From a virus (taxonomy: Duplodnaviria; Caudoviricetes), in the IMG/VR virus record IMGVR_UViG_3300030433_003509, positions 1 to 35,988 of that record: 35,988 nt of DNA; one strand, written 5' to 3'. A model generated the notes under the pieces. The model ran no database searches. It was given only the letters and a program-made list of their open reading frames with translations, and was not told the DNA's origin. Position numbers and translations under genes: made by a program. Shown here piece by piece: positions 4,266-27,159 of the stretch. The stretch's first letter is position 1, and each line of letters opens with the position of its first letter.

Positions 4266-4343
4266 GAAGATCCGGCGGTCGACGACGAGCTGTTCGTAAT
4301 CGGCCAAGTGATTGCTGTATCGAAAGGTACGAGCAATCAGTGA
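4266..4343 (+). repeat. Remnant of cI 3' end (copy 1)
   Basis: Encodes EDPAVDDELFVIGQVIAVSKGTSNQ* versus cI EDRAVDDELFIIGQVVGVMKKL*; first 45 nt are 39/45 identical to 3667-3711. Confidence 0.9.
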
Positions 4344-4357
4344 ATGGGGGGAGTGCA

Positions 4358-4819
4358 ATGCGACTTATTATGATGGCTGGTGTGGTCTTCAGCTTGGCAG
4401 CGTGCGGCGACTTACCAGACGAGCCAGCGGCGGACGATGGCGAATATGAAGCCAATATGGCCTCGGTTGGGGGCGAAGGCAATGCCGTGACCGATGCGGC
4501 TTCGTCCCTGACCGGGCCGCAAGCTAATGCTCGCCGAAGTGCGGAATCCTATCTTCAAATGCAGGGGTTTTCTCGTGCGGGCCTGATCGAGCAATTGTCG
4601 TCGGCCGCCGGGGACGGTTATGACTTGGCCGATGCAACTGCGGCCGTCGACAGCATGACAGTCGACTGGAACGAGCAAGCCGCGCGGTCCGCCAAGTCCT
4701 ATCTCGACATGATGGGGTTTTCCTGCTCCGGCCTCGTCGATCAGCTTTCGTCTTCAGCCGGCGACAAATACTCAGAGAGCGAAGCTCGATATGGCGCCCA
4801 GATGGCCGGTGCCTGTTAG
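4358..4819 (+). CDS. Ltp-family lipoprotein (superinfection-exclusion type), cargo 2
   Basis: Lipobox LAAC; two tandem Ltp-like repeats (ARRSAESYLQMQGFSRAGLIEQLSS..GDGY and AARSAKSYLDMMGFSCSGLVDQLSS..GDKY). Confidence 0.85.
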   Translation: MRLIMMAGVVFSLAACGDLPDEPAADDGEYEANMASVGGEGNAVTDAASSLTGPQANARRSAESYLQMQGFSRAGLIEQLSSAAGDGYDLADATAAVDSMTVDWNEQAARSAKSYLDMMGFSCSGLVDQLSSSAGDKYSESEARYGAQMAGAC

Positions 4820-11431: not shown

Positions 11432-11815
11432 TCAGCTGGCGGGCAGGCGCTGGGTGCGGCCCGGTTTCAGATCAATCGGGATGGTGAGGGTCTGCAGACG
11501 GTTGGCTTCGGGCAGGTCGGTGCGCCGCCCTTCGATGCGGATGGTCAGCTGTCCGTCCTGCGGCTCACCCAGCAGGGTGACGCGGGTCAGCTTCAGGCGC
11601 GGCTCCCACCGGGCGAGGGCGATTGCGACTGCGGCGTGCATCAGCATGCGGATCGCGCCGTTGAGCGGGCGATCGATCAGCTCGAAAAGCAGCGAGCCGT
11701 AATCGCGCCGCATCACGCGGCTGCCGAGCGGAGTGGACAGGATGTCGCCGATCGACTGCGCAAGATGCGCGTCGCCCGAAATGGCCGTGCCGGTGTGCTT
11801 GTCCATGCCCAACAT
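11432..11815 (-). CDS. W: Baseplate wedge protein (gpW/gp25)
   Basis: HLAQSIGDILSTPLGSRVMRRDYGS...ALARWEPRL. Confidence 0.95.
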   Translation of the reverse strand: MLGMDKHTGTAISGDAHLAQSIGDILSTPLGSRVMRRDYGSLLFELIDRPLNGAIRMLMHAAVAIALARWEPRLKLTRVTLLGEPQDGQLTIRIEGRRTDLPEANRLQTLTIPIDLKPGRTQRLPAS

Positions 11816-11862
11816 GGTGCACAGCCATCGCTTCTCACGCGCGGAATGCCAGCGGGGCGCGG

Positions 11863-11881
11863 GGTGAAGCGCGGCTTCACC
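11863..11881. promoter_or_regulatory. Late-promoter palindrome, copy A
   Basis: GGTGAAGC-GCG-GCTTCACC, 48 bp upstream of the W ATG. Confidence 0.75.
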
Positions 11882-11899
11882 GGACCAGCTGTTCGGACG

Positions 11900-12511
11900 C
11901 TATTGCGGTTCTGCGGAGGTGGACGATCCGGCTGCCACGCCGCCATGGCGGTGCCCGGCAAGGCTGATGCCGTCAGCCATGACATCGCCGTTCGCCTCGA
12001 GCGTCTGGCTGATGCTGGCACTACCGTCGATCGCGACGTCACCCTCGATCGACACATCGCCTTCGATCGTGACCGGCCCGCGCAAGGTGATGCCGCCGGG
12101 GGCCTCAATCTCTGCAGTGGCGCCATCGGGCAGGATCGCGGTCAGCGCGCCGGCCTCGGGATCGTAGGCGATGCGCGCGCCGTCAGAGAATTCGATCACT
12201 TCCTCGATGCTGTCGCCCGGCGCTGTGAAGGCGTCCTGATAAATCCCGGGGAGGGCGACCGCATTGCCGATCTGCCCATCGGGCGCGAGCAGGATCACCT
12301 GCTCCCCAACGGTTGGCGGAGACCAGGTGCGCGTGTCCCCCGCGCGCATCGTCAGCCAACGGACCGGAATAGTCTCGCCGGGTTCGTCATCGTCCGGATC
12401 GCCGTAGCGCACGGTGCAGCGCGCCTGGGCAAAGTCGACCGAGGTCACGGTGCCGAACCGGATCAGCGTAGCGATGTCGGCCGGAATATCTTCGGGCGGG
12501 GGCTGGTTCAT
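11900..12511 (-). CDS. V: Baseplate spike protein (gpV)
   Basis: LIRFGTV..VD...RAGDTRTWSPPTVGEQV; C-terminal HRH metal site. Confidence 0.95.
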   Translation of the reverse strand: MNQPPPEDIPADIATLIRFGTVTSVDFAQARCTVRYGDPDDDEPGETIPVRWLTMRAGDTRTWSPPTVGEQVILLAPDGQIGNAVALPGIYQDAFTAPGDSIEEVIEFSDGARIAYDPEAGALTAILPDGATAEIEAPGGITLRGPVTIEGDVSIEGDVAIDGSASISQTLEANGDVMADGISLAGHRHGGVAAGSSTSAEPQ

Positions 12512-13006: not shown

Positions 13007-13248
13007 GCCTCGCCTCCCGGTGTCTTGGTACCAGCGAGGTAGGCGGTCTTCTCTTGGCTGGATTGCGAGGTGCCGAAGAAAAAGCCGAGGGCATCCTTGC
13101 TGTTGGTGATGATCGCGCCGAGCAGCACCAGCAGGATGTCGCGGTCGGCGTGCTGAACGTTGCCGAGCGCAATCAGCAGCAGCGCGCCGAACAGCATCGC
13201 GAGGGTCGCGAAGGCGAGCAGCGCGCGGACGAAGCGGGGGTCTGTCAT
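13003..13248 (-). CDS. Two-TM holin-like protein
   Basis: MTDPRFVRALLAF...; two TM helices, FFFGTSQSSQEK tail; coupled to endolysin. Confidence 0.55.
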   Translation of the reverse strand: MTDPRFVRALLAFATLAMLFGALLLIALGNVQHADRDILLVLLGAIITNSKDALGFFFGTSQSSQEKTAYLAGTKTPGGEA

Positions 13249-13838
13249 CGTGCCCAGTCTCCGGTCTTGTGGTGTAGCCACACGAGGAAGTCGCGGACCG
13301 TCTTGCCCTTGAGGATCGACGGGTTGGCGCGCGTGGCCGCGGCGCCCGCGAGAAGATCCGCCCGTTCGCCAATGTCGGCGGCGATCACCCGTGCGGCGGT
13401 GACGGGGCCGAAGAAGTGGGCGGCGTAGAGCGAGGCGCGGTTTATCGGCAGGCCATTACCCGCGAGGTAGCGGGCGTTCTTCGCGGTGAAGGTCTTCGCG
13501 CGGGCGAGCTGCTCTTCGACGTCGGGGCGCAAGCCGCCGAACGCCTGCGATGGATCGTCGCCCCACGCGCCGCCTTCGCCGATCCACGTCGACCGGATGA
13601 ACTGATAAAGCCCGGAAGCACTGGACGTGCGCGCCTTGACGTAGGGGCGATCCCCGCTCTCGATCTTCGAGAGCATGGGCCAGTAATCTTCGGGAATCAT
13701 GCCGGCGTCCGGCTGCGCAGGCGGGGGGAGAAGTTCGTCGAGCTTGGCGATCGTGTCGCGGCCGGCCCAGCCGTCGACTGCCAGACCGGCCCGCGCCTGA
13801 AACAGGCGCACGAACTCGTCATCGCTGATCAGCGTCAT
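13245..13838 (-). CDS. Endolysin (PG-binding N-terminus + lysozyme-like/transglycosylase domain)
   Basis: FQARAGLAVDGWAGRDT PG-binding motif; IESG...SSASGLYQFIRSTW; true start ATG 13838. Confidence 0.88.
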   Translation of the reverse strand: MTLISDDEFVRLFQARAGLAVDGWAGRDTIAKLDELLPPPAQPDAGMIPEDYWPMLSKIESGDRPYVKARTSSASGLYQFIRSTWIGEGGAWGDDPSQAFGGLRPDVEEQLARAKTFTAKNARYLAGNGLPINRASLYAAHFFGPVTAARVIAADIGERADLLAGAAATRANPSILKGKTVRDFLVWLHHKTGDWAR

Positions 13839-14278
13839 TGGTCTTCGTCCTTCTTGCTGGCGAGCCGTGCGGCGGCGATCTGCTTGGCCGCGTCCTGCCG
13901 CCGCTCGCCCATGATCTGATCGACCGGCGTGAACTTGCGGCGCAGCCATTCGGTCGCTTCGGAGTGGACCGCGGAGAGCAGCTTTACGCCGCCCATCGCC
14001 ATGATGAAGGACAGGACCGCCGCGCCGAGCGCGTCGAGGTTTGCGTATTGAACCCCCAGCAGCACGAAGAGCAGGCACCCGCCGGAGATGAGGAAGCTGA
14101 CGAGCAGCTCGCGCCAGATCAGCGCGGTGCTTTCCCTCTTGCTGACCTGCACCGCCGCACGCGCGGCCCAGCCCGCAGCGAAGCCGAAGCCGATCGCGCC
14201 AGCCAGCACCCAGTCCACGGCAGCGATCGCCACGAGGAAGGGCGGGGTGTATTTCGCCGCGGCGGTCGGGGCGATCAC
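13835..14278 (-). CDS. Holin-like membrane protein (3 TM)
   Basis: GTG start overlapping the upstream stop; three TM helices and a charged C-tail; directly before endolysin. Confidence 0.6.
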   Translation of the reverse strand: MIAPTAAAKYTPPFLVAIAAVDWVLAGAIGFGFAAGWAARAAVQVSKRESTALIWRELLVSFLISGGCLLFVLLGVQYANLDALGAAVLSFIMAMGGVKLLSAVHSEATEWLRRKFTPVDQIMGERRQDAAKQIAAARLASKKDEDQ

Positions 14279-14694
14279 AGCTGCGCTCCCACGGTTTCCT
14301 GCAGCGCAAACCAGACGGCCCACCACCAGATCACGCACGACAGCATCATCGGGCCGCGCCGCCGCGCGAAGCCGATTGCCGTGATCCACGCACAGCCGCC
14401 CCAGAACAGCCACGCGGTGGCCATTGCCTGGCGAAACAGCAGGCTATCCCGATCGAACCCGGCAATGCGCCCATCGCCCGCCCACGGGATGACCGCGCCG
14501 GCGATCAGGATGGCGAGCAGCGCCAACAGCAGACCCAGCCCGAGGAACCAGCGCACGGTGTCGCTGAGATAGGGCGTGGTGTGCGGGTCGAAGGTGTAGA
14601 GCCACTTGCCGACCGGCCAGACGGCCAGCAGCGCGCCCATCGCCGCCCACCAGCGCCACGTGTCGGCCAGCATGTCGACGTTGAGCCCGATCAT
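14275..14694 (-). CDS. Multi-TM membrane protein at the head of the lysis cassette
   Basis: About 4 Trp-rich TM helices; ATGA-coupled to the tailspike. Confidence 0.65.
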   Translation of the reverse strand: MIGLNVDMLADTWRWWAAMGALLAVWPVGKWLYTFDPHTTPYLSDTVRWFLGLGLLLALLAILIAGAVIPWAGDGRIAGFDRDSLLFRQAMATAWLFWGGCAWITAIGFARRRGPMMLSCVIWWWAVWFALQETVGAQL

Positions 14695-18438: not shown

Positions 18439-19076
18439 GACGCCACCAAAAATTCGTCGGAGGTTTCGGCCCTGATCGGTTCGCCGTCTTCGGTCTGCAG
18501 GTAGGTCGCCCAGACTGGATCGAGAGCTGTGGTGGTGTCGGCCTCGGTATCGAGGCGGACGAAGCCAGCATCGTGGCCCGCGCCGAGCAGCCCGGCATGC
18601 GCCTGCGCACGCATTCGGTGGACCGCGAACATGTGCGAGCGCAGCGGTTTGACCGCAGCGATGTCGCGCAACAGCTCGCGCACGAGCGCGGCGTCATACT
18701 CGACGCCGCTGACCGTCTTCAGCGGCAGTTCGAGACGGAAGGTGTGCGGGTCGAGATATTGACGGTCTTCGAACCATTCGACGATTTCGATCAGCGGGTC
18801 GAAGCGATCGAGCACGGTGCGCAGCGAAGATCGCGTGCCCTTGCGCCGCTGGGCCTCGATCGCGCCCGCGACTGCATCGCGCTTGACCTGCTCGCTCCAG
18901 TTCGTGTCCCACACGTCGATAGAGATCCCCCAGGCCAGCCAGGGCAGGAGCTGGGCGGGGCAGGTCTGCGGATTCCAGACCGATCGGATCGGGATGGGCA
19001 GCTCGCCCAGCCCGTCCAGTTCGACCTGGTCGAGCGCGCGATCGAGCGGGGTGGCATTGGGCGGCAGGATGCTCAC
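18435..19076 (-). CDS. I: Baseplate/tail protein I
   Basis: LPPNATPL...WNPQTCPAQLLPWLAWGISIDVWD...RRKGT. Confidence 0.95.
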   Translation of the reverse strand: MSILPPNATPLDRALDQVELDGLGELPIPIRSVWNPQTCPAQLLPWLAWGISIDVWDTNWSEQVKRDAVAGAIEAQRRKGTRSSLRTVLDRFDPLIEIVEWFEDRQYLDPHTFRLELPLKTVSGVEYDAALVRELLRDIAAVKPLRSHMFAVHRMRAQAHAGLLGAGHDAGFVRLDTEADTTTALDPVWATYLQTEDGEPIRAETSDEFLVAS

Positions 19077-19966
19077 GTCGCCACCCCCGAGACTGCCACC
19101 GAACGCGCCCCGAGGTTCGCGGCCTGGGTGAGGTCCACCACGACATCGGCCGCAGGCGAGCCAATCACGACATTCTGCACGCCGGCCACGTGGAGCGCCG
19201 CGCCGATTGCCGATCGGGTGATGTCGCGACCCAGATGGCGGCTGCTGGCGATCAGCTGATCGAGCGCGGCGTTGGCGGTCGCCAGCACCAGCTGCTGATC
19301 GGGGCCGGGATAAAGCACGAGTTGCGCGTCGATGTCGAAGGTGACGATCTGCGCGCTCTGCACGGTGACCTGATCGGTCAGCGGGCGCACCTCGTCATCA
19401 TTCAGGACGGTGGCGACCTTGTCGATCAGGGCCGCCGGGGCGGTGCCGTCGCCCTGCCGGGAAAGGACGGACACGACGACCTCGCCCGGCTCGGGGCTGA
19501 CGGCGCTTGCGTCGAGCACGTCGGCATCGGCGGATAGTGCGTGATAGACGTAGGCGCTGGCGGGACCGGCCACGCTGAAGCTGTCCGGCGCAAGCAACAC
19601 GCGGCGGCGCAGCGCGGTGTCATCCTCGAGAACTGCGGGTGTGTTGGTCTGCGAATTGGCGGGGGCGATTTCCTGCCGGGTCACGCCGAGCAGTGCGGCC
19701 AGATTGTCGAGATCGGGGCCGCCCGCGTATGCGATCAGCACGCCGCGCACCGCGTCATTGATCCGGGCGCGCAATACGAGCTCGCGATAGGCGCCCGCCT
19801 CGAGCGCCTTGATTACGGGATCGCTTTCGACATCGGCGCTGAAGGCAGGAAAGCGCCCGAGGAAATCCGCCTTGCGCGCAGCGTAGATCGTTTCGAAGTC
19901 CAGTTCTTCGATGACGTCGGGCGGCGGCAGGCGCGACAGGTCCACGGAAGTTGCGGCGGCGGTCAT
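19073..19966 (-). CDS. J: Baseplate wedge protein J
   Basis: VDLSRLPPPDVIEELDFE...SVAGPASAYVYHA...VRPLTDQV; start at MTAAA. Confidence 0.95.
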   Translation of the reverse strand: MTAAATSVDLSRLPPPDVIEELDFETIYAARKADFLGRFPAFSADVESDPVIKALEAGAYRELVLRARINDAVRGVLIAYAGGPDLDNLAALLGVTRQEIAPANSQTNTPAVLEDDTALRRRVLLAPDSFSVAGPASAYVYHALSADADVLDASAVSPEPGEVVVSVLSRQGDGTAPAALIDKVATVLNDDEVRPLTDQVTVQSAQIVTFDIDAQLVLYPGPDQQLVLATANAALDQLIASSRHLGRDITRSAIGAALHVAGVQNVVIGSPAADVVVDLTQAANLGARSVAVSGVAT

Positions 19967-20032: not shown

Positions 20033-20092
20033 CCGCCACGCCCCGCCAAGGGAAGGCTGGTGTGGTGCGGGATGGTCTGGCATCGAAGGCCG

Positions 20093-20530
20093 ATGCTGAC
20101 CGCGTTGCTACTCCTGACTGTCCCGATCGTGCCCGCTGGCGAGAGCTTCGCGTGCACTCCGGTGGCGGTGTGGGACGGTGATGGTCCGGTGTGGTGCGAG
20201 GAAGGCCCTCGCATCAGGCTGGCAGGTATCGCGGCCCGGGAAATCGATGGCACATGCAGGCGAGGGCACCCCTGTCCCGATGCATCGGGAGAGGCCGCGC
20301 GTGACGCGCTCGCGCGGCTGCTGGGCGAACCCGGAGGGATCGGGCGTTATGGTCATCGTTTGGTTGACGGGCCGACGATGCGGTGCCGGTCGACGGGATC
20401 GGCGGAAGGCACGCGCACGGGGGCATGGTGCCTATCGCCAGTCGGCGGCGACATTAGCTGCGCGATGGTGCGATCGGGCATGGCGAAACGCTGGCGCAGG
20501 TTCTGGGGAGGGCACCGGTGTGGTCACTGA
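20093..20530 (+). CDS. Secreted thermonuclease (SNase)-like protein
   Basis: VWDGDG and IRLAGIAARE are variants of SNase VxDGDT and IRLxGIDAPE; ISCAMVRSGMA; hydrophobic N-terminus. Confidence 0.8.
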   Translation: MLTALLLLTVPIVPAGESFACTPVAVWDGDGPVWCEEGPRIRLAGIAAREIDGTCRRGHPCPDASGEAARDALARLLGEPGGIGRYGHRLVDGPTMRCRSTGSAEGTRTGAWCLSPVGGDISCAMVRSGMAKRWRRFWGGHRCGH

Positions 20531-20742: not shown

Positions 20743-21861
20743 TCAAGCAGTTGCGACGAAGTGTGATTGCCGCGGTCGCAGGAAGAAGCGTCTCGGCGGC
20801 GCGAAGTCTGAGCGGCTTTCGGAGTGGTCGGGCGAGTATTCGATCTCTTGCCGTGCGAACCGTAGCGCACATTCCGCTTCCAAGAGCGTATGGGGATCGG
20901 ACCGGTCGTGGTTGCGACGGGCATCGAAGACGACAAGATGACCTTTGAGCGCAGTGGCTCGGGAGAACCGCCGCTCGCGGTCGAGGTAGTCTGCTAACTG
21001 GTTCGCGCCTCTTACGGCTCGATTGGCGTCATAGCGGGTGTAGGTTTCCTCGTCACTTTCCTTTCGGGGCTTCGCGGTCGCACAACCCAGCCATTTGATT
21101 TCTATCAGGGACGAGGAGGACGATGCCGACCATTCGACGCGGATGTCGACTGGCTTGCTCTCGTCGGTATTTTGCTCCGGCCGTACGCTGGCGTTGCGCA
21201 GCACGATTGCGAGCATCTGGCTGAGCGACTTGCGCATGATTCGCTCCGGCTTGTTAACCAAGACGAGGCGCGGGCCGTCGACCCCTCCCTCCCAAACATC
21301 CTCAAGCAGGAAGCATCGGCTTTCCTCTGCGATACTCGCGTAATAGTCGAGCGCCTCATCGAGGTCATCGAAAGCTGGATTTGCGAAGTTGCTGGCGAAC
21401 TCCGGGACGACCTTCTCGACCGCCACGTCGTGGGTCCTCGCCAGTATACGATCCAGTCGATCATGGTATCGGTATACGATGGAACTCCGCGCGAGCGCGG
21501 CTGGATCAGGTTCTACATTCGAACTCGTCGTCCTCATGGAGCGATCCGGTCCGAGAAGGATGAGTGGGTATTTCCCATCTGGAAGGTCGCGGAGCCATTC
21601 CCCGATTTTGGTTGGGTTTGTGACCCTTTCGGCGCGGTTCCACATGCACTCGATTTCATCTTCTCCCGGATCGATCGGGCGCATGATGGTAAGCGCTTGC
21701 GTCAGGTTTTCGGGCGGGAATCCCTCAAAGACGAGCTTAATTGTGTCGAGAAGCTCCTCGAGCGCGGTTTCGCCCTCCTCTCCGAATGCGTCAACCACCC
21801 GATGGACATAGGCTCCGGAGACAAGCCGCTTGACGGAGTCTACATTGATCCTACCGAGCAT
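20743..21861 (-). CDS. Putative PD-(D/E)XK nuclease effector
   Basis: C-terminal EQ....KPVDIRVEW...LIEIKW...NQLADYL (E..D..ExK..QxxxY) restriction-fold pattern; N-terminal ~200 aa unknown. Confidence 0.7.
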   Translation of the reverse strand: MLGRINVDSVKRLVSGAYVHRVVDAFGEEGETALEELLDTIKLVFEGFPPENLTQALTIMRPIDPGEDEIECMWNRAERVTNPTKIGEWLRDLPDGKYPLILLGPDRSMRTTSSNVEPDPAALARSSIVYRYHDRLDRILARTHDVAVEKVVPEFASNFANPAFDDLDEALDYYASIAEESRCFLLEDVWEGGVDGPRLVLVNKPERIMRKSLSQMLAIVLRNASVRPEQNTDESKPVDIRVEWSASSSSSLIEIKWLGCATAKPRKESDEETYTRYDANRAVRGANQLADYLDRERRFSRATALKGHLVVFDARRNHDRSDPHTLLEAECALRFARQEIEYSPDHSESRSDFAPPRRFFLRPRQSHFVATA

Positions 21862-22459
21862 CTTCGCCCCTCAGTACTCGCGCAGACAGCCAGAGGACAG
21901 CTGGGGACAGCAGGGACCGCGTTTCTTCTTCGAGTGCCGCGCATACGGCCTCGTACTCGTCGTGTAGAACTGACACATCATTTTGCTGGAGCAACACCCT
22001 GTTTTGCCCAAGGGCAGCGGCAGCAGCTAGACCGGGCGAGGAACCGACAGCCTGGCGAACGGCCCCTATCGGCAGCGCGAGAGCGCACCGCGTGGCGATC
22101 TTCAGACATTCGCGCCTTCTGGAAGGACCCGAAAGCGAAGAAAGTTCGTCCAACTCGGCTGGGAGCGTGTCTGCATGGGGAGCGATGAAGCCTTCTTCGC
22201 TTTCGCTCACCAGACCGCGCGCTGTCAGGAGGCGACGAGCCGTTTCGAGTTCGGCACTGAAGGGCACGCCTTCGGACGTGACCGCGAACAGGTAGCCCCA
22301 AGACGCTGCCGGAAATCCACGAAACAGGCCGAGGACGCATGCAAGATAGGCATAAAGGTGCAGCTCGAATACCGTCATTGGCAGCACGGATCGCGGTGCA
22401 TCGCCCAGAAGGGCGATCACGTCAAAGTACGCGTCAGGAGAAACATCCACCCGCGTCAC
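21851..22459 (-). CDS. Small unknown protein (possible wHTH adaptor / middle component)
   Basis: GTGA-coupled to the ATPase, 11-nt overlap with the nuclease; GVPFSAELETA...L..RGLV is a wHTH-like pattern. Confidence 0.6.
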   Translation of the reverse strand: MTRVDVSPDAYFDVIALLGDAPRSVLPMTVFELHLYAYLACVLGLFRGFPAASWGYLFAVTSEGVPFSAELETARRLLTARGLVSESEEGFIAPHADTLPAELDELSSLSGPSRRRECLKIATRCALALPIGAVRQAVGSSPGLAAAAALGQNRVLLQQNDVSVLHDEYEAVCAALEEETRSLLSPAVLWLSARVLRGEDAR

Positions 22460-24414
22460 AGGAGAGCAGCTTCGATTTTTCGGTAGGCTTCGTCAAACAA
22501 ACCCTCTTCGGCTTGCTGAACCAGGCTAAGATCGGTCCATTCAGTCATGCGTACAATCTGCATGCCAGCTTCCGTTTGCTGCTGGGCCAGACGAAGGACA
22601 AGCTCCGAACTGCGCAGGTTGGCTGTCATCACGACACGGTTGCCCGCATTGGCGAAGCGCGAGAACATCGCGCCGGCGCGCGCTTCGTAGGCGATGTCGA
22701 GCGAACCCTCCGGAGTATCGATCATCAAGGACGCCGGCCCGTCTGTCATATACTCCGCGAGGGCCATGCGCAGGGCGATATCAATGAAGAATCTCTGGCT
22801 TTCGGAGACGTCGTTTGACTGGAGTCTGGACTGTCCGTTCATGAGCAGGCGCAGGCCAAACCCCGCAGCGCTACGCCCTTCGCGCGGATCGAGTTGGACG
22901 TTCACCGGCATGCCAATAAATTCTTCCGCCAGTTCGCGAAAACGCGGGACGAATTCTACTGCGGCCGACTCGTATTGGGAGTTAAGTTTCTTCTCGAACT
23001 GCCGGAGACGGTTCCTTAGCTCGTCACGCTTTTCATAGTGTTTCTTGCTCTGGTCGAGCAGTTCCTGCCTTTCCGCTTTCAGCTTCTCAAGTTCTGCCTT
23101 CACAGGGCTGTGGTCGATACGACCCTGGAGGCGTGTGAGGCCGCCGGCCTCCTTTTCTTCGAACTCCCGCAGGGCAGCACGCTCTGCTTCCTCTTGGGCT
23201 TCGGCGTTCTCTAGCCGATCGGCCGCGGTCTGCCGGTTGTCGAGCGCCCTCTCCAACGCTTGGGTGAGTTCGCCGATGCGGGCGTCAAGCGCGCGCAGCT
23301 CGTCCATTTCCCCGCTCGGTTCCGTAACGGATGACAGCACTGAATCGCAAAGAGGGCATTTGCCGTCGTCTAGCTTGGCCTCGATTGCTGGTGCGACGTC
23401 GTCAGTCCCGCACAAACCGCACCGGTTCTCGCTAAGTGTTCCACGCAGCACGGGATGGTGCTGGACCGTCGCGGGCCCTTGGATTCTGCGCGCGAAGACC
23501 TTACGGTATTCCAGTTGCAGTTCGGTTAGGGAAGAACTGGTCTCAGTCCATAGCTCGTCCGCCTCGCGCAATTCTATCCTGTGCCGTCTTGACCGATCCG
23601 CTGCAACGTCGAGGCGGGCCTTGAGGGACTCCTGTTCGGCTCGCAGCTCCTCATCCTTGCGGAAATCGGTGGAAGGGTCGGGCTCAAGGACGTCGACGAG
23701 TTGCTCGATACGTTTGGTTACGTTTCGCGCGGCGAAGCGGACGTTTCTAGCCCGGCTATCTTCGCGATCGACCTCCCGCTGCAGATTGTCTGCGTCTCGG
23801 GCCTGCGATGGATCTGCGCCGAACGCAAGATAGAGGGCATTAGTCAAGGCCGCGTCATCCCACATGAGCAGGTGTCGTCCCTCGTCGAACGTCTGCACGA
23901 AATGAGATAGGAAGACGAACTGCGCGAAGTCCTTGAGACCTGTCTCTCTCAGAACAAGTTCCTTGTAGGCTCCGTCTAGATCGCTCCCGTCCTCTCGCTG
24001 GATCTCCTCACCATCGATCGAGAGCCTCGAAACGCCGAGCGCGCCGGAGAGCTCGCGCGTCACTGCGACTTCCCGCATGCCGAAAGCGAGGGTGACAGTG
24101 GCCTCCGCCCTGTTCAGGGAGGTCGCGCTTATGCGGCCCCGGTAGTAGTCATCGGTACGGTCCGCTCGGACGGCGTTCTTGAGATAATCTGACGCCGACT
24201 GGAATCGGCGTGTGGGATCCGGCACGGCGCCCGTCACCACGTAACTCACGGTGTTTAGGAAGGTGGATTTGCCGAGGCCGTTGGCTCCGATGAGACAGAA
24301 GACGGGTTTTTCAACGACGATCTCCTGACTCGGCTTTCGCGTGTAGAGATCAAAGCCTTCGAGCGCGACCTTCTCGATTGTCGGCAGCCTGATCCACGCG
24401 CCATCCTTACTCAT
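22456..24414 (-). CDS. SMC/Rad50-like coiled-coil ABC ATPase
   Basis: Walker A GANGLGKST; long coiled coil with CGLC and CPLC at the apex; signature VSESQR; Walker B/D-loop LMIDTPEGSLD; start MSKDG with GAGG RBS. Confidence 0.9.
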   Translation of the reverse strand: MSKDGAWIRLPTIEKVALEGFDLYTRKPSQEIVVEKPVFCLIGANGLGKSTFLNTVSYVVTGAVPDPTRRFQSASDYLKNAVRADRTDDYYRGRISATSLNRAEATVTLAFGMREVAVTRELSGALGVSRLSIDGEEIQREDGSDLDGAYKELVLRETGLKDFAQFVFLSHFVQTFDEGRHLLMWDDAALTNALYLAFGADPSQARDADNLQREVDREDSRARNVRFAARNVTKRIEQLVDVLEPDPSTDFRKDEELRAEQESLKARLDVAADRSRRHRIELREADELWTETSSSLTELQLEYRKVFARRIQGPATVQHHPVLRGTLSENRCGLCGTDDVAPAIEAKLDDGKCPLCDSVLSSVTEPSGEMDELRALDARIGELTQALERALDNRQTAADRLENAEAQEEAERAALREFEEKEAGGLTRLQGRIDHSPVKAELEKLKAERQELLDQSKKHYEKRDELRNRLRQFEKKLNSQYESAAVEFVPRFRELAEEFIGMPVNVQLDPREGRSAAGFGLRLLMNGQSRLQSNDVSESQRFFIDIALRMALAEYMTDGPASLMIDTPEGSLDIAYEARAGAMFSRFANAGNRVVMTANLRSSELVLRLAQQQTEAGMQIVRMTEWTDLSLVQQAEEGLFDEAYRKIEAALL

Positions 24415-24418
24415 CGCC

Positions 24419-25762
24419 TCATTCCTTTTCGCGCCTTTCGAAGACGAGGCAATGCTCGGCGAGATGCATACCGCCGCCATGCTGAGAGCTGTTCCGCATC
24501 GAACGCATAACCCCCTGTTCAACGAGACTGAAGCCTAGTTCATTCACGCATTGCTCGAGTATTCCCGCCACGTCGACGATGATACCGGCATATTGGCTAT
24601 TGCCGATCGCTACAACGGCCTTGCCACCCACTGGCAATATGCGTCGCAATTCGCTGAAGATTGCGGCGAGATCGGCGAAGTACTGACCTATCATTCCCGG
24701 GATGTTCACGTTCCAAAGATCGGCGCGGGCCTCTTCGAGTCTGGCGAGTGTCTCCGAAAGGATCGCACTGTGGGGCACCGAGGACGAAGCGGCCCATTTG
24801 ACTTGAACATGCGAGCGTAGGGTGTTCTGCCTCAGTGTGCGGTTGTCCTCGCCCGATGATAGATAATCGAGCATCCAGAGTTCAAGATTGTACACATCGG
24901 TGTAGTCGAAGCTGTTGGGATAGGGCGGCGAGAAGATGGCAAGATCCGCAGTCTTCACCTTGCGCAGCATAGTCCGGCAGTCCCCGCGCAGTACCTTCTG
25001 CTCTCCACATTTTGGAGACGAGAACAAGGAAATATCCTCGATGGCGGTGTCCACCGCCGCGTCAAGCGCTTGGATTAGTTGGGCGGCGGTTCTCTCACGT
25101 TCCTGCCAGTTCCGACGATAGCGCCTGCCCTTCCCATTCACAACGACGTTGCTGTTGCTCACCAAGGTCGACCCGAGGAGAACCTTCAGCAGCCTTCCGT
25201 GCGCCGGAGCCATTCGCGGGATTTCTCTGACGATTGCCCGGACCGTACCGAATACTTCAGTGCTGAAAACGTGACGACCGTTCACCCCTGGGGGTGCGAA
25301 TGTGGCCGGCATGCCTGGCCCCAAGACGGTGTCCTCCTCCCGTACCTCGAGGGTACGCAGCAGGTCTTCGTAGTCGCCGAGGAAGGCTGAGCTCGAGACG
25401 GGTTCGATCTTTGCTTCGATCAGGTCGGCGAGGAACGGATTAACCTCAATGCTGGTCGACGAGAGGCCGAGCATGCGACACGTCAGCGCGGTCGTTCCGC
25501 TCCCTCCAAACGGGTCGAGGCAATGCTCCACGGGGCCGTCCAGCGACGCTAGGGTGTCGATGACAAATTTTGGGGAGAACGCCTCCTTGAAGCGGAACCA
25601 CCGTTGGAAAGGCACCTCGGTTGTTCCCTGGTTCGACGAGGTGGGCACGCCTTCCCGGTAGCGCGACAGCCAGTTCGCCGGATCGAGAACCGCGGTGCGT
25701 TTTCCGACTGTTCGGCTCGTTGCCACTGTTTCGGCGAGTGAGGCCGCCCAGAACGCATTCAT
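24419..25762 (-). CDS. Site-specific amino DNA methyltransferase (SPPY, probable m4C)
   Basis: Motif I LDPFGGSGTT precedes motif IV FSPPYPN, with a long intervening region (alpha-type order). Confidence 0.9.
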   Translation of the reverse strand: MNAFWAASLAETVATSRTVGKRTAVLDPANWLSRYREGVPTSSNQGTTEVPFQRWFRFKEAFSPKFVIDTLASLDGPVEHCLDPFGGSGTTALTCRMLGLSSTSIEVNPFLADLIEAKIEPVSSSAFLGDYEDLLRTLEVREEDTVLGPGMPATFAPPGVNGRHVFSTEVFGTVRAIVREIPRMAPAHGRLLKVLLGSTLVSNSNVVVNGKGRRYRRNWQERERTAAQLIQALDAAVDTAIEDISLFSSPKCGEQKVLRGDCRTMLRKVKTADLAIFSPPYPNSFDYTDVYNLELWMLDYLSSGEDNRTLRQNTLRSHVQVKWAASSSVPHSAILSETLARLEEARADLWNVNIPGMIGQYFADLAAIFSELRRILPVGGKAVVAIGNSQYAGIIVDVAGILEQCVNELGFSLVEQGVMRSMRNSSQHGGGMHLAEHCLVFERREKE

Positions 25763-26472
25763 CCTGCATTCTCCCTGCGCGAGTTCGCAATACGATCCAT
25801 TAGTGAGCGGTCGATTTCTTCCATCTCTAAGAGGGCGGCCATGATCGCATTACGTTCGAGGTGCGGCATGCTCGCAAGGCGATCGCGCCAGCGCGTGATT
25901 TTGCGCCTAATCCGTTCCCTCTCGCGATAAGTTGCTCCCACGTTTTTGTAGTCGTGGAGCGCAGCCCCGAACACGAAGTTCGCCCAGACCCGCTCCTCTC
26001 TGACTCCACCGTGGGTGACGTTGGGGAAATCGCGGTGATTCCATCGACCGAGATACGCCTCATAGAGGCTCGACGGATAGCCCGAAATCATAATGTAGCA
26101 GGGCAGTTCGCAGATTGTCTCGAGGAGCTCCCCGTGATCCTCGTCGGTATATTCGTGGCGGTAGTATCGGCGACCCTTCTTTGTGGAGGATAAGTAGGGG
26201 GGGTCTACATAGACCAGTTCCCCGCCTTGGAAGTTGAAAGAGTTGAGGAAACGCACTGCGTCCTGCTCGACAAGCTGGAGGTCCGACATTCCCCAGCCTC
26301 GTGCGGCCTCGATGACCAGTGGGTCCACGTCGACGCCAATGTTCCTAGTCGCGGGGCGTTTGTTGCGCATAATCGCGCCGCCGCCGAGGTGGGTCTCGAT
26401 GTAGACGCTGTGTGGGGGCATCAATGCGGTGATGTTTTGCCACATTCTGCCCTTTCCCCCCGGATATCCCAT
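25759..26472 (-). CDS. Compact Dam/D12-class DNA adenine methyltransferase
   Basis: GYPGGKG, YIETHLGGGA, YVDPPY; helical C-terminal extension; ATGA-coupled to the next MTase; start 26472 or 26484. Confidence 0.88.
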   Translation of the reverse strand: MGYPGGKGRMWQNITALMPPHSVYIETHLGGGAIMRNKRPATRNIGVDVDPLVIEAARGWGMSDLQLVEQDAVRFLNSFNFQGGELVYVDPPYLSSTKKGRRYYRHEYTDEDHGELLETICELPCYIMISGYPSSLYEAYLGRWNHRDFPNVTHGGVREERVWANFVFGAALHDYKNVGATYRERERIRRKITRWRDRLASMPHLERNAIMAALLEMEEIDRSLMDRIANSRRENAG

Positions 26473-26673: not shown

Positions 26674-27159
26674 TCATCGTTGCTTAGCGAAGAGGTCCGC
26701 TGCGGCATCCAGCGCAAGCTGGTCGTCGCCCTCGCCGAAGCCCAGTAACCGCCGTTGCGGGTAGCGGGTGTAGATCTTCTTTCCATCGGGTCCGCGCCCG
26801 ACAAAGCCGCGCTTGCCGAAATGATGGACCAGCGCAACGCCGTCGCCCTTCTTGAGCGTGATTTCCACGCTGTCAGACCGCGCGCGGATCGCCCACTGCC
26901 GGGCGTAGCGCAGCTTGCGGAACATCTTGCCGCCTGCCTTCTTCCTCACCCGACCTCGCCGGTCGAGCCGGGCCTTCCGCTCTTCCATCTTGCCGCCGTC
27001 GGGTTCGACATTGGCGGTGATGCGCGCGAGGTTCGAACGGCGCAGGGCCTGACCGAGCTTGGTCGCTGCACGCTTTCGCTTGGCGGGTGAGAGCCCGGCG
27101 AGGATGTCGCCCAGCCACGGATCGAGCCCGGCGAGCGCGTCGGAATCGTAGTCAGACAT
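26674..27159 (-). CDS. S: Tail completion / virion morphogenesis protein (gpS)
   Basis: LRRSNLARITANVEPDG, MFRKL, ALVHHFG, YPQRRLLGF. Confidence 0.92.
   Translation of the reverse strand: MSDYDSDALAGLDPWLGDILAGLSPAKRKRAATKLGQALRRSNLARITANVEPDGGKMEERKARLDRRGRVRKKAGGKMFRKLRYARQWAIRARSDSVEITLKKGDGVALVHHFGKRGFVGRGPDGKKIYTRYPQRRLLGFGEGDDQLALDAAADLFAKQR

Follow-up and report, generated by a model that had tools for sequence, protein, structure and literature searches.

A candidate restriction-modification cassette in a P2-like phage that joins a Lamassu-like ATPase trio to a linked methylase

The 36-kb IMG/VR virus record IMGVR_UViG_3300030433_003509 (hereafter the window) carries the genes of a P2-like phage. 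Between its gpS and gpJ genes lie five intact minus-strand open reading frames (ORFs), encoding a Dam-like methylase (M1), a second methylase (M2), a coiled-coil ABC ATPase, a small middle protein and a nuclease. The conserved core of this cassette is four genes, M2 and the ATPase-middle-nuclease trio, and not five. It is likely an unnamed system that resembles a Lamassu-type machine joined to restriction-modification (RM), and it corresponds in full neither to Lamassu nor to type II RM. We propose, with a probability of roughly 0.55, that the cassette acts as an ATP-gated RM defence system. What chiefly supports this proposal is that the trio keeps, and re-acquires, a methylase whose family belongs to type II RM.

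Linkage and exchange of the methylase M2

A search with a nuclease profile yielded a linkage set of 80 genome loci. The trio has the order ATPase-middle-nuclease in 73 of them, and the remaining 7 are truncated, fragmentary or without a detectable middle gene. M2 adjoins the trio in 69 of the 73 loci, and in 53 of the 55 whose flanks are complete. It lies downstream and co-directional in 44 loci, upstream and co-directional in 14, divergent in 7 and convergent in 4; since it is kept in four arrangements, the link between M2 and the trio outlasts rearrangement. No further gene family is conserved across the trio loci beyond the four core genes. A preliminary description of this DNA had proposed that the trio is coupled to dedicated methylases, and this neighbourhood survey upholds the proposal for M2, which carries an SPPY motif. 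It does not hold for M1, which carries a DPPY motif: M1 is found in 7 of the 80 loci, all of them in the window's own clade of 13 proteobacterial loci, and is accessory. A core with both methylases is thereby ruled out. The four-gene core occurs in at least nine bacterial phyla, and relatives of the nuclease (E<=1e-30) fall into 319 clusters at 50% identity; neither the phage collection nor the plasmid collection contained a nuclease match.

Motif I of M2 (residues 83-91) precedes its SPPY motif (residues 278-281), which is the alpha order, and SPPY is kept in all 65 complete loci. The SPPY motif indicates N4-cytosine methylation, and M2 is likely an N4-cytosine methyltransferase, as predicted from these motifs. 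In a reciprocal test, the M2 profile matched 12 of 400 sampled Pseudomonadota genomes besides the seed, 4 strongly (E<=6e-119) and 8 more weakly. Each of the four strong matches is next to the gene of a distant trio-type ATPase in which VSESQ and two CxxC motifs are retained. None of the eight weaker matches, two of which are on short contigs, adjoins such an ATPase; of five neighbours that were tested, four proved to be type II restriction enzymes, for example BsoBI (3e-128). Both M2 matches in the plasmid collection also adjoin distant trios; one of them, from Burkholderia (L234:2430-12547), has two divergent distant trios flanking a single M2 and a small helix-turn-helix (HTH) gene. The middle protein and nuclease of this distant sister group are weakly related to those of the window (hhalign probability 91 and 84, respectively). 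A scan of viral contigs with M2 gave generic motif matches only. We also observed a second viral contig with the four-gene form, in the order ATPase-middle-nuclease-M2 (L314:7956-12927). In Azospirillum (L235:5512-12766), M2 is followed by a 524-residue P-loop protein, KAP-like by eye, and a distant trio, with its ATPase divided between two ORFs, lies in convergent orientation to them.

Gene trees (quick trees or FastTree, with midpoint roots) show incongruence and not its direction. Tree distances within the trio are correlated at r 0.91-0.95, and those of M2 against each trio gene at r 0.38-0.45. The M2 clade of the window (100% support) is common to three ATPase lineages, down to ~25% ATPase identity, namely the window's trio lineage, a second lineage (L018, L026 and L074) and the distant sister group; the other members of the second lineage carry a different M2 clade. 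These trees indicate that M2 is the exchangeable part of the cassette, swapped between trio lineages. Because one M2 clade serves three ATPase lineages, they also suggest that selection keeps a methylase beside the trio.

The trio proteins and known systems

The ATPase contains a Walker A motif (GANGLGKS), CxxC motifs at residues 332-335 and 353-356, a VSESQ signature and a Walker B motif (LMIDTP), and its homologues keep the signature as xSESQ and Walker B as hhhDTP. Its best PADLOC match is LmuB (1.1e-19, 69 bits), followed by mad3, DndD (1e-10) and PbeC (2e-8). The ATPase profile matches structural maintenance of chromosomes (SMC) and Rad50 heads, and against PDB sequences it found no Lamassu chain at E<=0.001. 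The model of the middle protein (predicted local distance difference test, pLDDT, 84.8) shows a winged helix followed by a helical C-terminal part. The top match of this model is 7yk3_D (Z 10.2, root-mean-square deviation (rmsd) 4.7, 148 aligned), and many winged helix-turn-helix (wHTH) regulators also match (VIA), as do two Lamassu chains, 9ny5_C (Z 8.2, rmsd 4.4, 118 aligned) and 9hqx_d (Z 7.4), which we take to be LmuC from their length. The middle protein gave 0.84 against the Atlas MC2 cluster, and the middle-component Pfam families had no match in 64 members of its family.

The nuclease model (pLDDT 89.5) has a C-terminal restriction fold, for which McrC (Z 7.6, rmsd 3.9, 129 aligned) is the top match, tied with others. 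E229, D239, E254 and K256 are invariant in 63 of 63 members and lie in this PD-(D/E)XK domain, in agreement with the C-terminal placement of the nuclease motif in the preliminary description; the DPPY, SPPY and ATPase motifs listed there were likewise found in the window proteins and are conserved in homologues. The N-terminal domain is weakly similar to diadenylate cyclases (DAC), with DisA at a Foldseek E of 4.5e-4 and 2fb5 at Z 6.7. The catalytic motifs of diadenylate cyclases are DGA and RHR. In an unaligned scan of 63 N-terminal regions, DGA was found in 8 and RH[RA] in 2, and both are absent in the window protein, so an active cyclase was rejected. PADLOC gave no match for the window's middle protein or nuclease, nor for any of the 63 nuclease members, and NCBIfam and Pfam scans of the cassette proteins gave no named-system match of weight. 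The preliminary description had likewise not recognised a named system. A limited search of the literature, which extended to transposon passengers, yielded no description of the cassette or of the M1 family, and an earlier bioinformatic description may exist.

Among the closest known systems are short Lamassu and ABC-three-component (ABC-3C) systems, with which the cassette shares three coupled genes, a small middle protein of predicted HTH fold and a nuclease partner. PMC12663957 defines short LmuB proteins by ~600 residues, Walker A Gx4GK[ST], Walker B hhhhD[QSTE] and 0-2 CxxC motifs, and the ATPase conforms to this (652 residues, GANGLGKS, LMIDT, two CxxC), like those of short Lamassu, DdmABC and ABC-3C. 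However, short Lamassu has the order effector-middle-ATPase; the reversed order of the Lamassu-like trio, as first described, is seen both in the window and across the trio loci. Furthermore, the LmuA effector domain is N-terminal and docking is C-terminal, whereas here the PD-(D/E)XK domain is C-terminal, behind the DAC-like domain. Short Lamassu works as an A1B2C1 complex that senses DNA ends. The cassette also lacks a PADLOC match to LmuA or LmuC, matches LmuB weakly (69 bits) and has a near-obligate SPPY methylase, while the two Lamassu papers searched (PMC10586767 and PMC12663957) mention no methylase.

The DndD/CxC ABC-ATPase systems (PbeABCD), as described in PMC10853773, also combine a Zn-hook ABC ATPase scanner, a small DNA-binding partner and a nuclease, and some have C5 or N4 cytosine methylases. 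CxC-ABC systems with cytosine methylases are the closest conceptual precedent. According to the same paper (PMC10853773), their partner is a DndE ribbon-helix-helix protein, their nuclease is an HKD-SF2 helicase fusion, and their N4 methylase is circularly permuted and optional. In the cassette, by comparison, the partner has a wHTH fold, the nuclease is of the PD-(D/E)XK type and the methylase has the alpha order.

Type II RM systems with an alpha-order SPPY methylase (BsoBI-type) are related through M2. The weaker relatives of M2 pair with type II endonucleases, M2 keeps the motifs of a stand-alone amino-methyltransferase intact (motif I and SPPY), and in several sister loci a small divergent HTH gene, control-protein-like, precedes it. 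These systems have a single ATP-independent endonuclease, in contrast to the co-evolving ATPase-wHTH-nuclease trio found here. Methylation-associated defence systems (MADS) share methylation-based discrimination of self from non-self and ATPase-nuclease modules, and the cassette has weak mad2 and mad3 matches. MADS differs in having eight genes, m6A, an OLD-like ATPase and a Toprim nuclease (PMC13662399), compared with four conserved genes here, and the cassette is without HsdS-like, kinase or phosphoesterase genes.

Proposed mechanism and competing explanations

In an ATP-gated RM system, M2 would place a methyl group, probably on cytosine N4, at a short sequence in the DNA of both host and prophage. 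The ATPase dimer and the winged-helix protein would bind and scan double-stranded DNA and would hold the nuclease off, probably via its N-domain, as LmuB2C does LmuA. ATP-dependent release would be triggered when incoming DNA presents sites without the methyl mark, perhaps in combination with DNA ends, and the PD-(D/E)XK domain would then cut. M1 would be an accessory gained once in the subtype, with either a likely low specificity or a role as an S-adenosylmethionine- or DNA-binding controller during establishment. Such a mobile cassette, borne by a prophage, would help protect its carrier from rival phages.

Several points weigh against this proposal. Only two full-flank trios are without M2; one is broken (L069), and the other (L046:5127-9050) is intact, has intact catalytic motifs and shows no M2 match genome-wide with this query. 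The trio therefore need not be lethal without M2, on the strength of this one case, and another host methylase may cover for M2 there. The free swapping of M2 beside ~25%-identical nucleases fits strict site-for-site RM pairing poorly, unless the M2 family reads one site. No site-reading domain was identified on the restriction side, the LmuC fold match of the middle protein is one among many wHTH matches, and every fold match of the nuclease is below Z 8. M1 is missing from 6 of the 13 loci in the subtype, and whole-genome searches of 3 of those genomes did not find it elsewhere. In addition, a preprint on Ambrosia (bioRxiv 2025.09.30.679545) indicates that a linked methylase need not protect. 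It is worth noting that L046 is a natural test case for methylase dependence.

The exchangeability of M2 and the intact trio without it could also be accounted for by abortive infection of the Lamassu type, in which DNA ends or replication intermediates, once detected by the ATPase and the wHTH protein, lead to the release of a non-specific nuclease that kills the cell, with the methylase as a guarded partner or decoy. This explanation agrees with the LmuC-like fold and with the short-LmuB traits of the ATPase (652 residues, Walker B hhhhDT and two CxxC; PMC12663957). We nevertheless consider it unlikely, though deserving of serious weight, as a linkage of 53 in 55 in four arrangements exceeds what is expected of a passenger, the Lamassu papers searched (PMC10586767, PMC12663957) are silent on methylases, and the nuclease domain is C-terminal and not N-terminal as in LmuA effectors.

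Methylases can also serve as the site-recognising subunit of a complex, as in type I enzymes and BREX PglX. If M2 played this part in the restriction complex, its exchange would give the trio a new target, and a trio without M2 would be inactive. The swapping of M2 while the trio co-evolves, the two divergent trios around a single M2 in L234 and the orphan trio of L046, which would then be harmless, all fit. On the other hand, a physical interface should hinder exchange between ~25%-identical trios, relatives of M2 act as stand-alone type II methylases, and the M2 gene is on the opposite strand in 11 of 69 loci. We hold this arrangement to be improbable.

Very improbable, in our view, is a suicide system in which infection activates the complex and the nuclease then attacks the mark set by M2 or M1. 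Ambrosia (bioRxiv 2025.09.30.679545) is a precedent, and McrC heads the fold matches for the nuclease domain, tied with others; but that match is a generic PD-(D/E)XK match, no known methyl-reading domain was found, and the relatives of M2 are protective type II methylases. A module for DNA repair or chromosome maintenance like SbcCD/Rad50, without a defence role, is scarcely credible despite the SMC and Rad50 heads matched by the ATPase profile, since the cassette is patchy and mobile, ~1% of the sampled Pseudomonadota carry it (4/400 besides the seed, in the M2 test), its site holds a known defence system (CBASS) in a related phage, and it pairs a restriction-fold nuclease with an RM-type methylase. 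We therefore return to an ATP-gated RM system as the favoured explanation.

The accessory methylase and the insertion site

M1 matches DpnM weakly (E 0.007), with an offset of ~15 residues at motif X/I and ~105 at motif IV. Because ~90 residues are missing relative to DpnM, and the PF02086 offsets agree, M1 is without a target-recognition domain (TRD); it carries a conserved basic helical C-terminal extension. DPPY is present in 100 of 101 members of the M1 family, and the spacing from motif I to IV is 62-73 residues in the 89 measured. Hia5, Hin1523 and PD-lambda-5 B are likewise Dam-related DPPY prophage enzymes (PD-Lambda-5_B match, 6e-13). Hia5 (281 residues) keeps a divergent target-recognition region, according to PMC3299994, whereas M1 lacks ~90 residues there and adds the basic extension.

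All 11 cassette-linked copies of M1 form one clade (99% support). Over 9 loci, their distances correlate with those of the remaining cassette genes at r 0.98-0.99, and 8 of 9 relatives retain the ATGA overlap between M1 and M2. M1 is thus stably inherited with the cassette, yet dispensable in the subtype, as it is present in 7 of 13 loci. The alternative that M1 is a resident phage gene was rejected, given this co-inheritance and the lack of an M1 match in the related phage loci surveyed at the insertion site. In several sister loci the place of M1, upstream of M2, is taken by a small HTH gene in divergent orientation, which might suggest a control role for the M1 position.

Elsewhere, members of the M1 family stand ahead of a gene for an Ogg-type glycosylase (23 of 80 metagenome loci), and also ahead of transposase-like ORFs of several families, a type IIG enzyme, IetAS, PDC-M30 and genes of P2 hotspots. 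In a TRD-less clade of 34 members (99% support; metagenome loci L105-L177, and L182, L184, L186, L187), 31 are directly upstream of transposase-like ORFs; six representatives of these ORFs match IS66, DDE_Tnp_1, DDE_5 or UPF0236 models, and the rest were called by similarity or by eye. One genome (G011) has the TRD-less methylase together with its downstream ORF in four copies that share 99.6-100% identity across 2.2 kb or more, a pattern that a transposon passenger would be expected to show. We also observed a recurring cassette in which a TRD-less methylase and an Ogg-HhH glycosylase face genes for QueC and a PfkB-nucleoside deoxyribosyltransferase (L109:7001-11401, L138, L126, L147, L152). 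It is often beside defence genes (SAVED-HNH, SIR2, AAA_15), PADLOC matched its QueC only, and it looks like a base-modification defence module.

The insertion in the window (Table 1) was described from the outset as five same-strand genes between gpS and gpJ, and the Pfam matches of both flanks and the intact ORFs bear this out. The junctions are exactly as reported, namely an ATGA overlap (M1/M2), a 4-nt gap (M2/ATPase), a GTGA overlap (ATPase/middle protein) and an 11-nt overlap (middle protein/nuclease). The weaker bias in G+C content at third codon positions (GC3) that had been judged by eye is real, with 0.62-0.71 in the cassette genes compared with 0.73-0.88 in ten structural genes read in the correct frame. 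The cassette borders showed neither terminal repeats nor a clear promoter or terminator, and the empty-site form of the insertion was not seen in four DNA runs. Contigs spanning the cassette were found in four metatranscriptomes, where the structural genes are also covered, patchily, although these runs were picked via the window and are hence no proof of transcription. GGCC, CCWGG and several GC-rich 6-mers are under-represented palindromes and are not attributable to M2.

Table 1 The cassette and adjoining genes in the window
Feature	Position	Strand	Description	Evidence
M1	25759..26472	-	237 aa, Dam-like DPPY adenine methyltransferase without target-recognition domain; accessory	PF02086 4e-9
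M2	24419..25762	-	447 aa, alpha-order amino-methyltransferase; core	PADLOC MTase_II 3e-48
ATPase	22456..24414	-	652 aa, coiled-coil ABC ATPase of short-LmuB/DndD/Rad50 type; core	PADLOC LmuB 1.1e-19
Middle protein	21851..22459	-	202 aa, predicted winged helix and helical C-terminal part; core	structure model
Nuclease	20743..21861	-	372 aa, DAC-like N-domain and C-terminal PD-(D/E)XK; core	structure model and motifs
Small cargo gene	20060..20530	+	function not assigned; outside cassette	PHROG 18798 (1e-40)
gpS	26674..27159	-	tail completion gene, upstream flank	PF05069 8e-19
gpJ	19073..19966	-	baseplate gene, downstream flank	PF04865 2e-28

The site was surveyed in 17 distinct related phage contigs with the direct gpS-gpJ layout; more distant phages in which gpV/gpW separate gpS from gpJ were not counted, nor were loci missing one flank. 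It is empty in 15 of the 17. A related P2-like phage (L194:6961-8873) has a cyclic-oligonucleotide-based antiphage signalling system (CBASS) there (cyclase 9e-179, 2TM effector 2e-71). As the site is mostly empty and holds CBASS in L194, it is a cargo site used by defence genes, which agrees with the earlier suggestion of defence cargo at a P2-like phage hotspot. In another contig (L191), the site holds only a homologue of the small plus-strand cargo gene, which is therefore not part of the cassette. This gene had no Pfam or PADLOC match, and its product may be thermonuclease-like. Elsewhere in the window, gpV/gpW-like baseplate spike and wedge genes (11432-12511 and 13245-14309) are away from gpS-gpJ and follow the genes for the tail fibre and the transglycosylase, an order that differs from that of enterobacterial P2-like phages. 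A superinfection-exclusion-like lipoprotein gene (4340-4819; PHROG 15667, 2e-41) adjoins the repressor and is a second protective cargo gene.

A wider and more tentative proposal, to which we give well under even odds, is a new RM class in which a Rad50/Lamassu-type SMC machine would read methylation and license a nuclease, the SPPY methylase would be a plug-in specificity module shared by distant trios, and a TRD-less Dam-like protein would be a catalytic control subunit that also heads other defence cassettes and transposons. The TRD-less methylase family is of note in its own right: DPPY is conserved, the recognition domain is absent and the family heads unrelated cassettes. PADLOC 2.0 has no model for the middle protein and nuclease of the cassette, even though the family is widespread. 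The cassette bears on the means by which immune complexes of the SMC type distinguish foreign DNA from self; Wadjet does so by DNA shape and Lamassu by DNA ends. If the proposal of ATP-gated RM is true, the cassette would link Lamassu, the Dnd/CxC scanners and classical RM, and the family would add an epigenetic mark to the self and foreign cues of SMC-type complexes, with only four or five genes.

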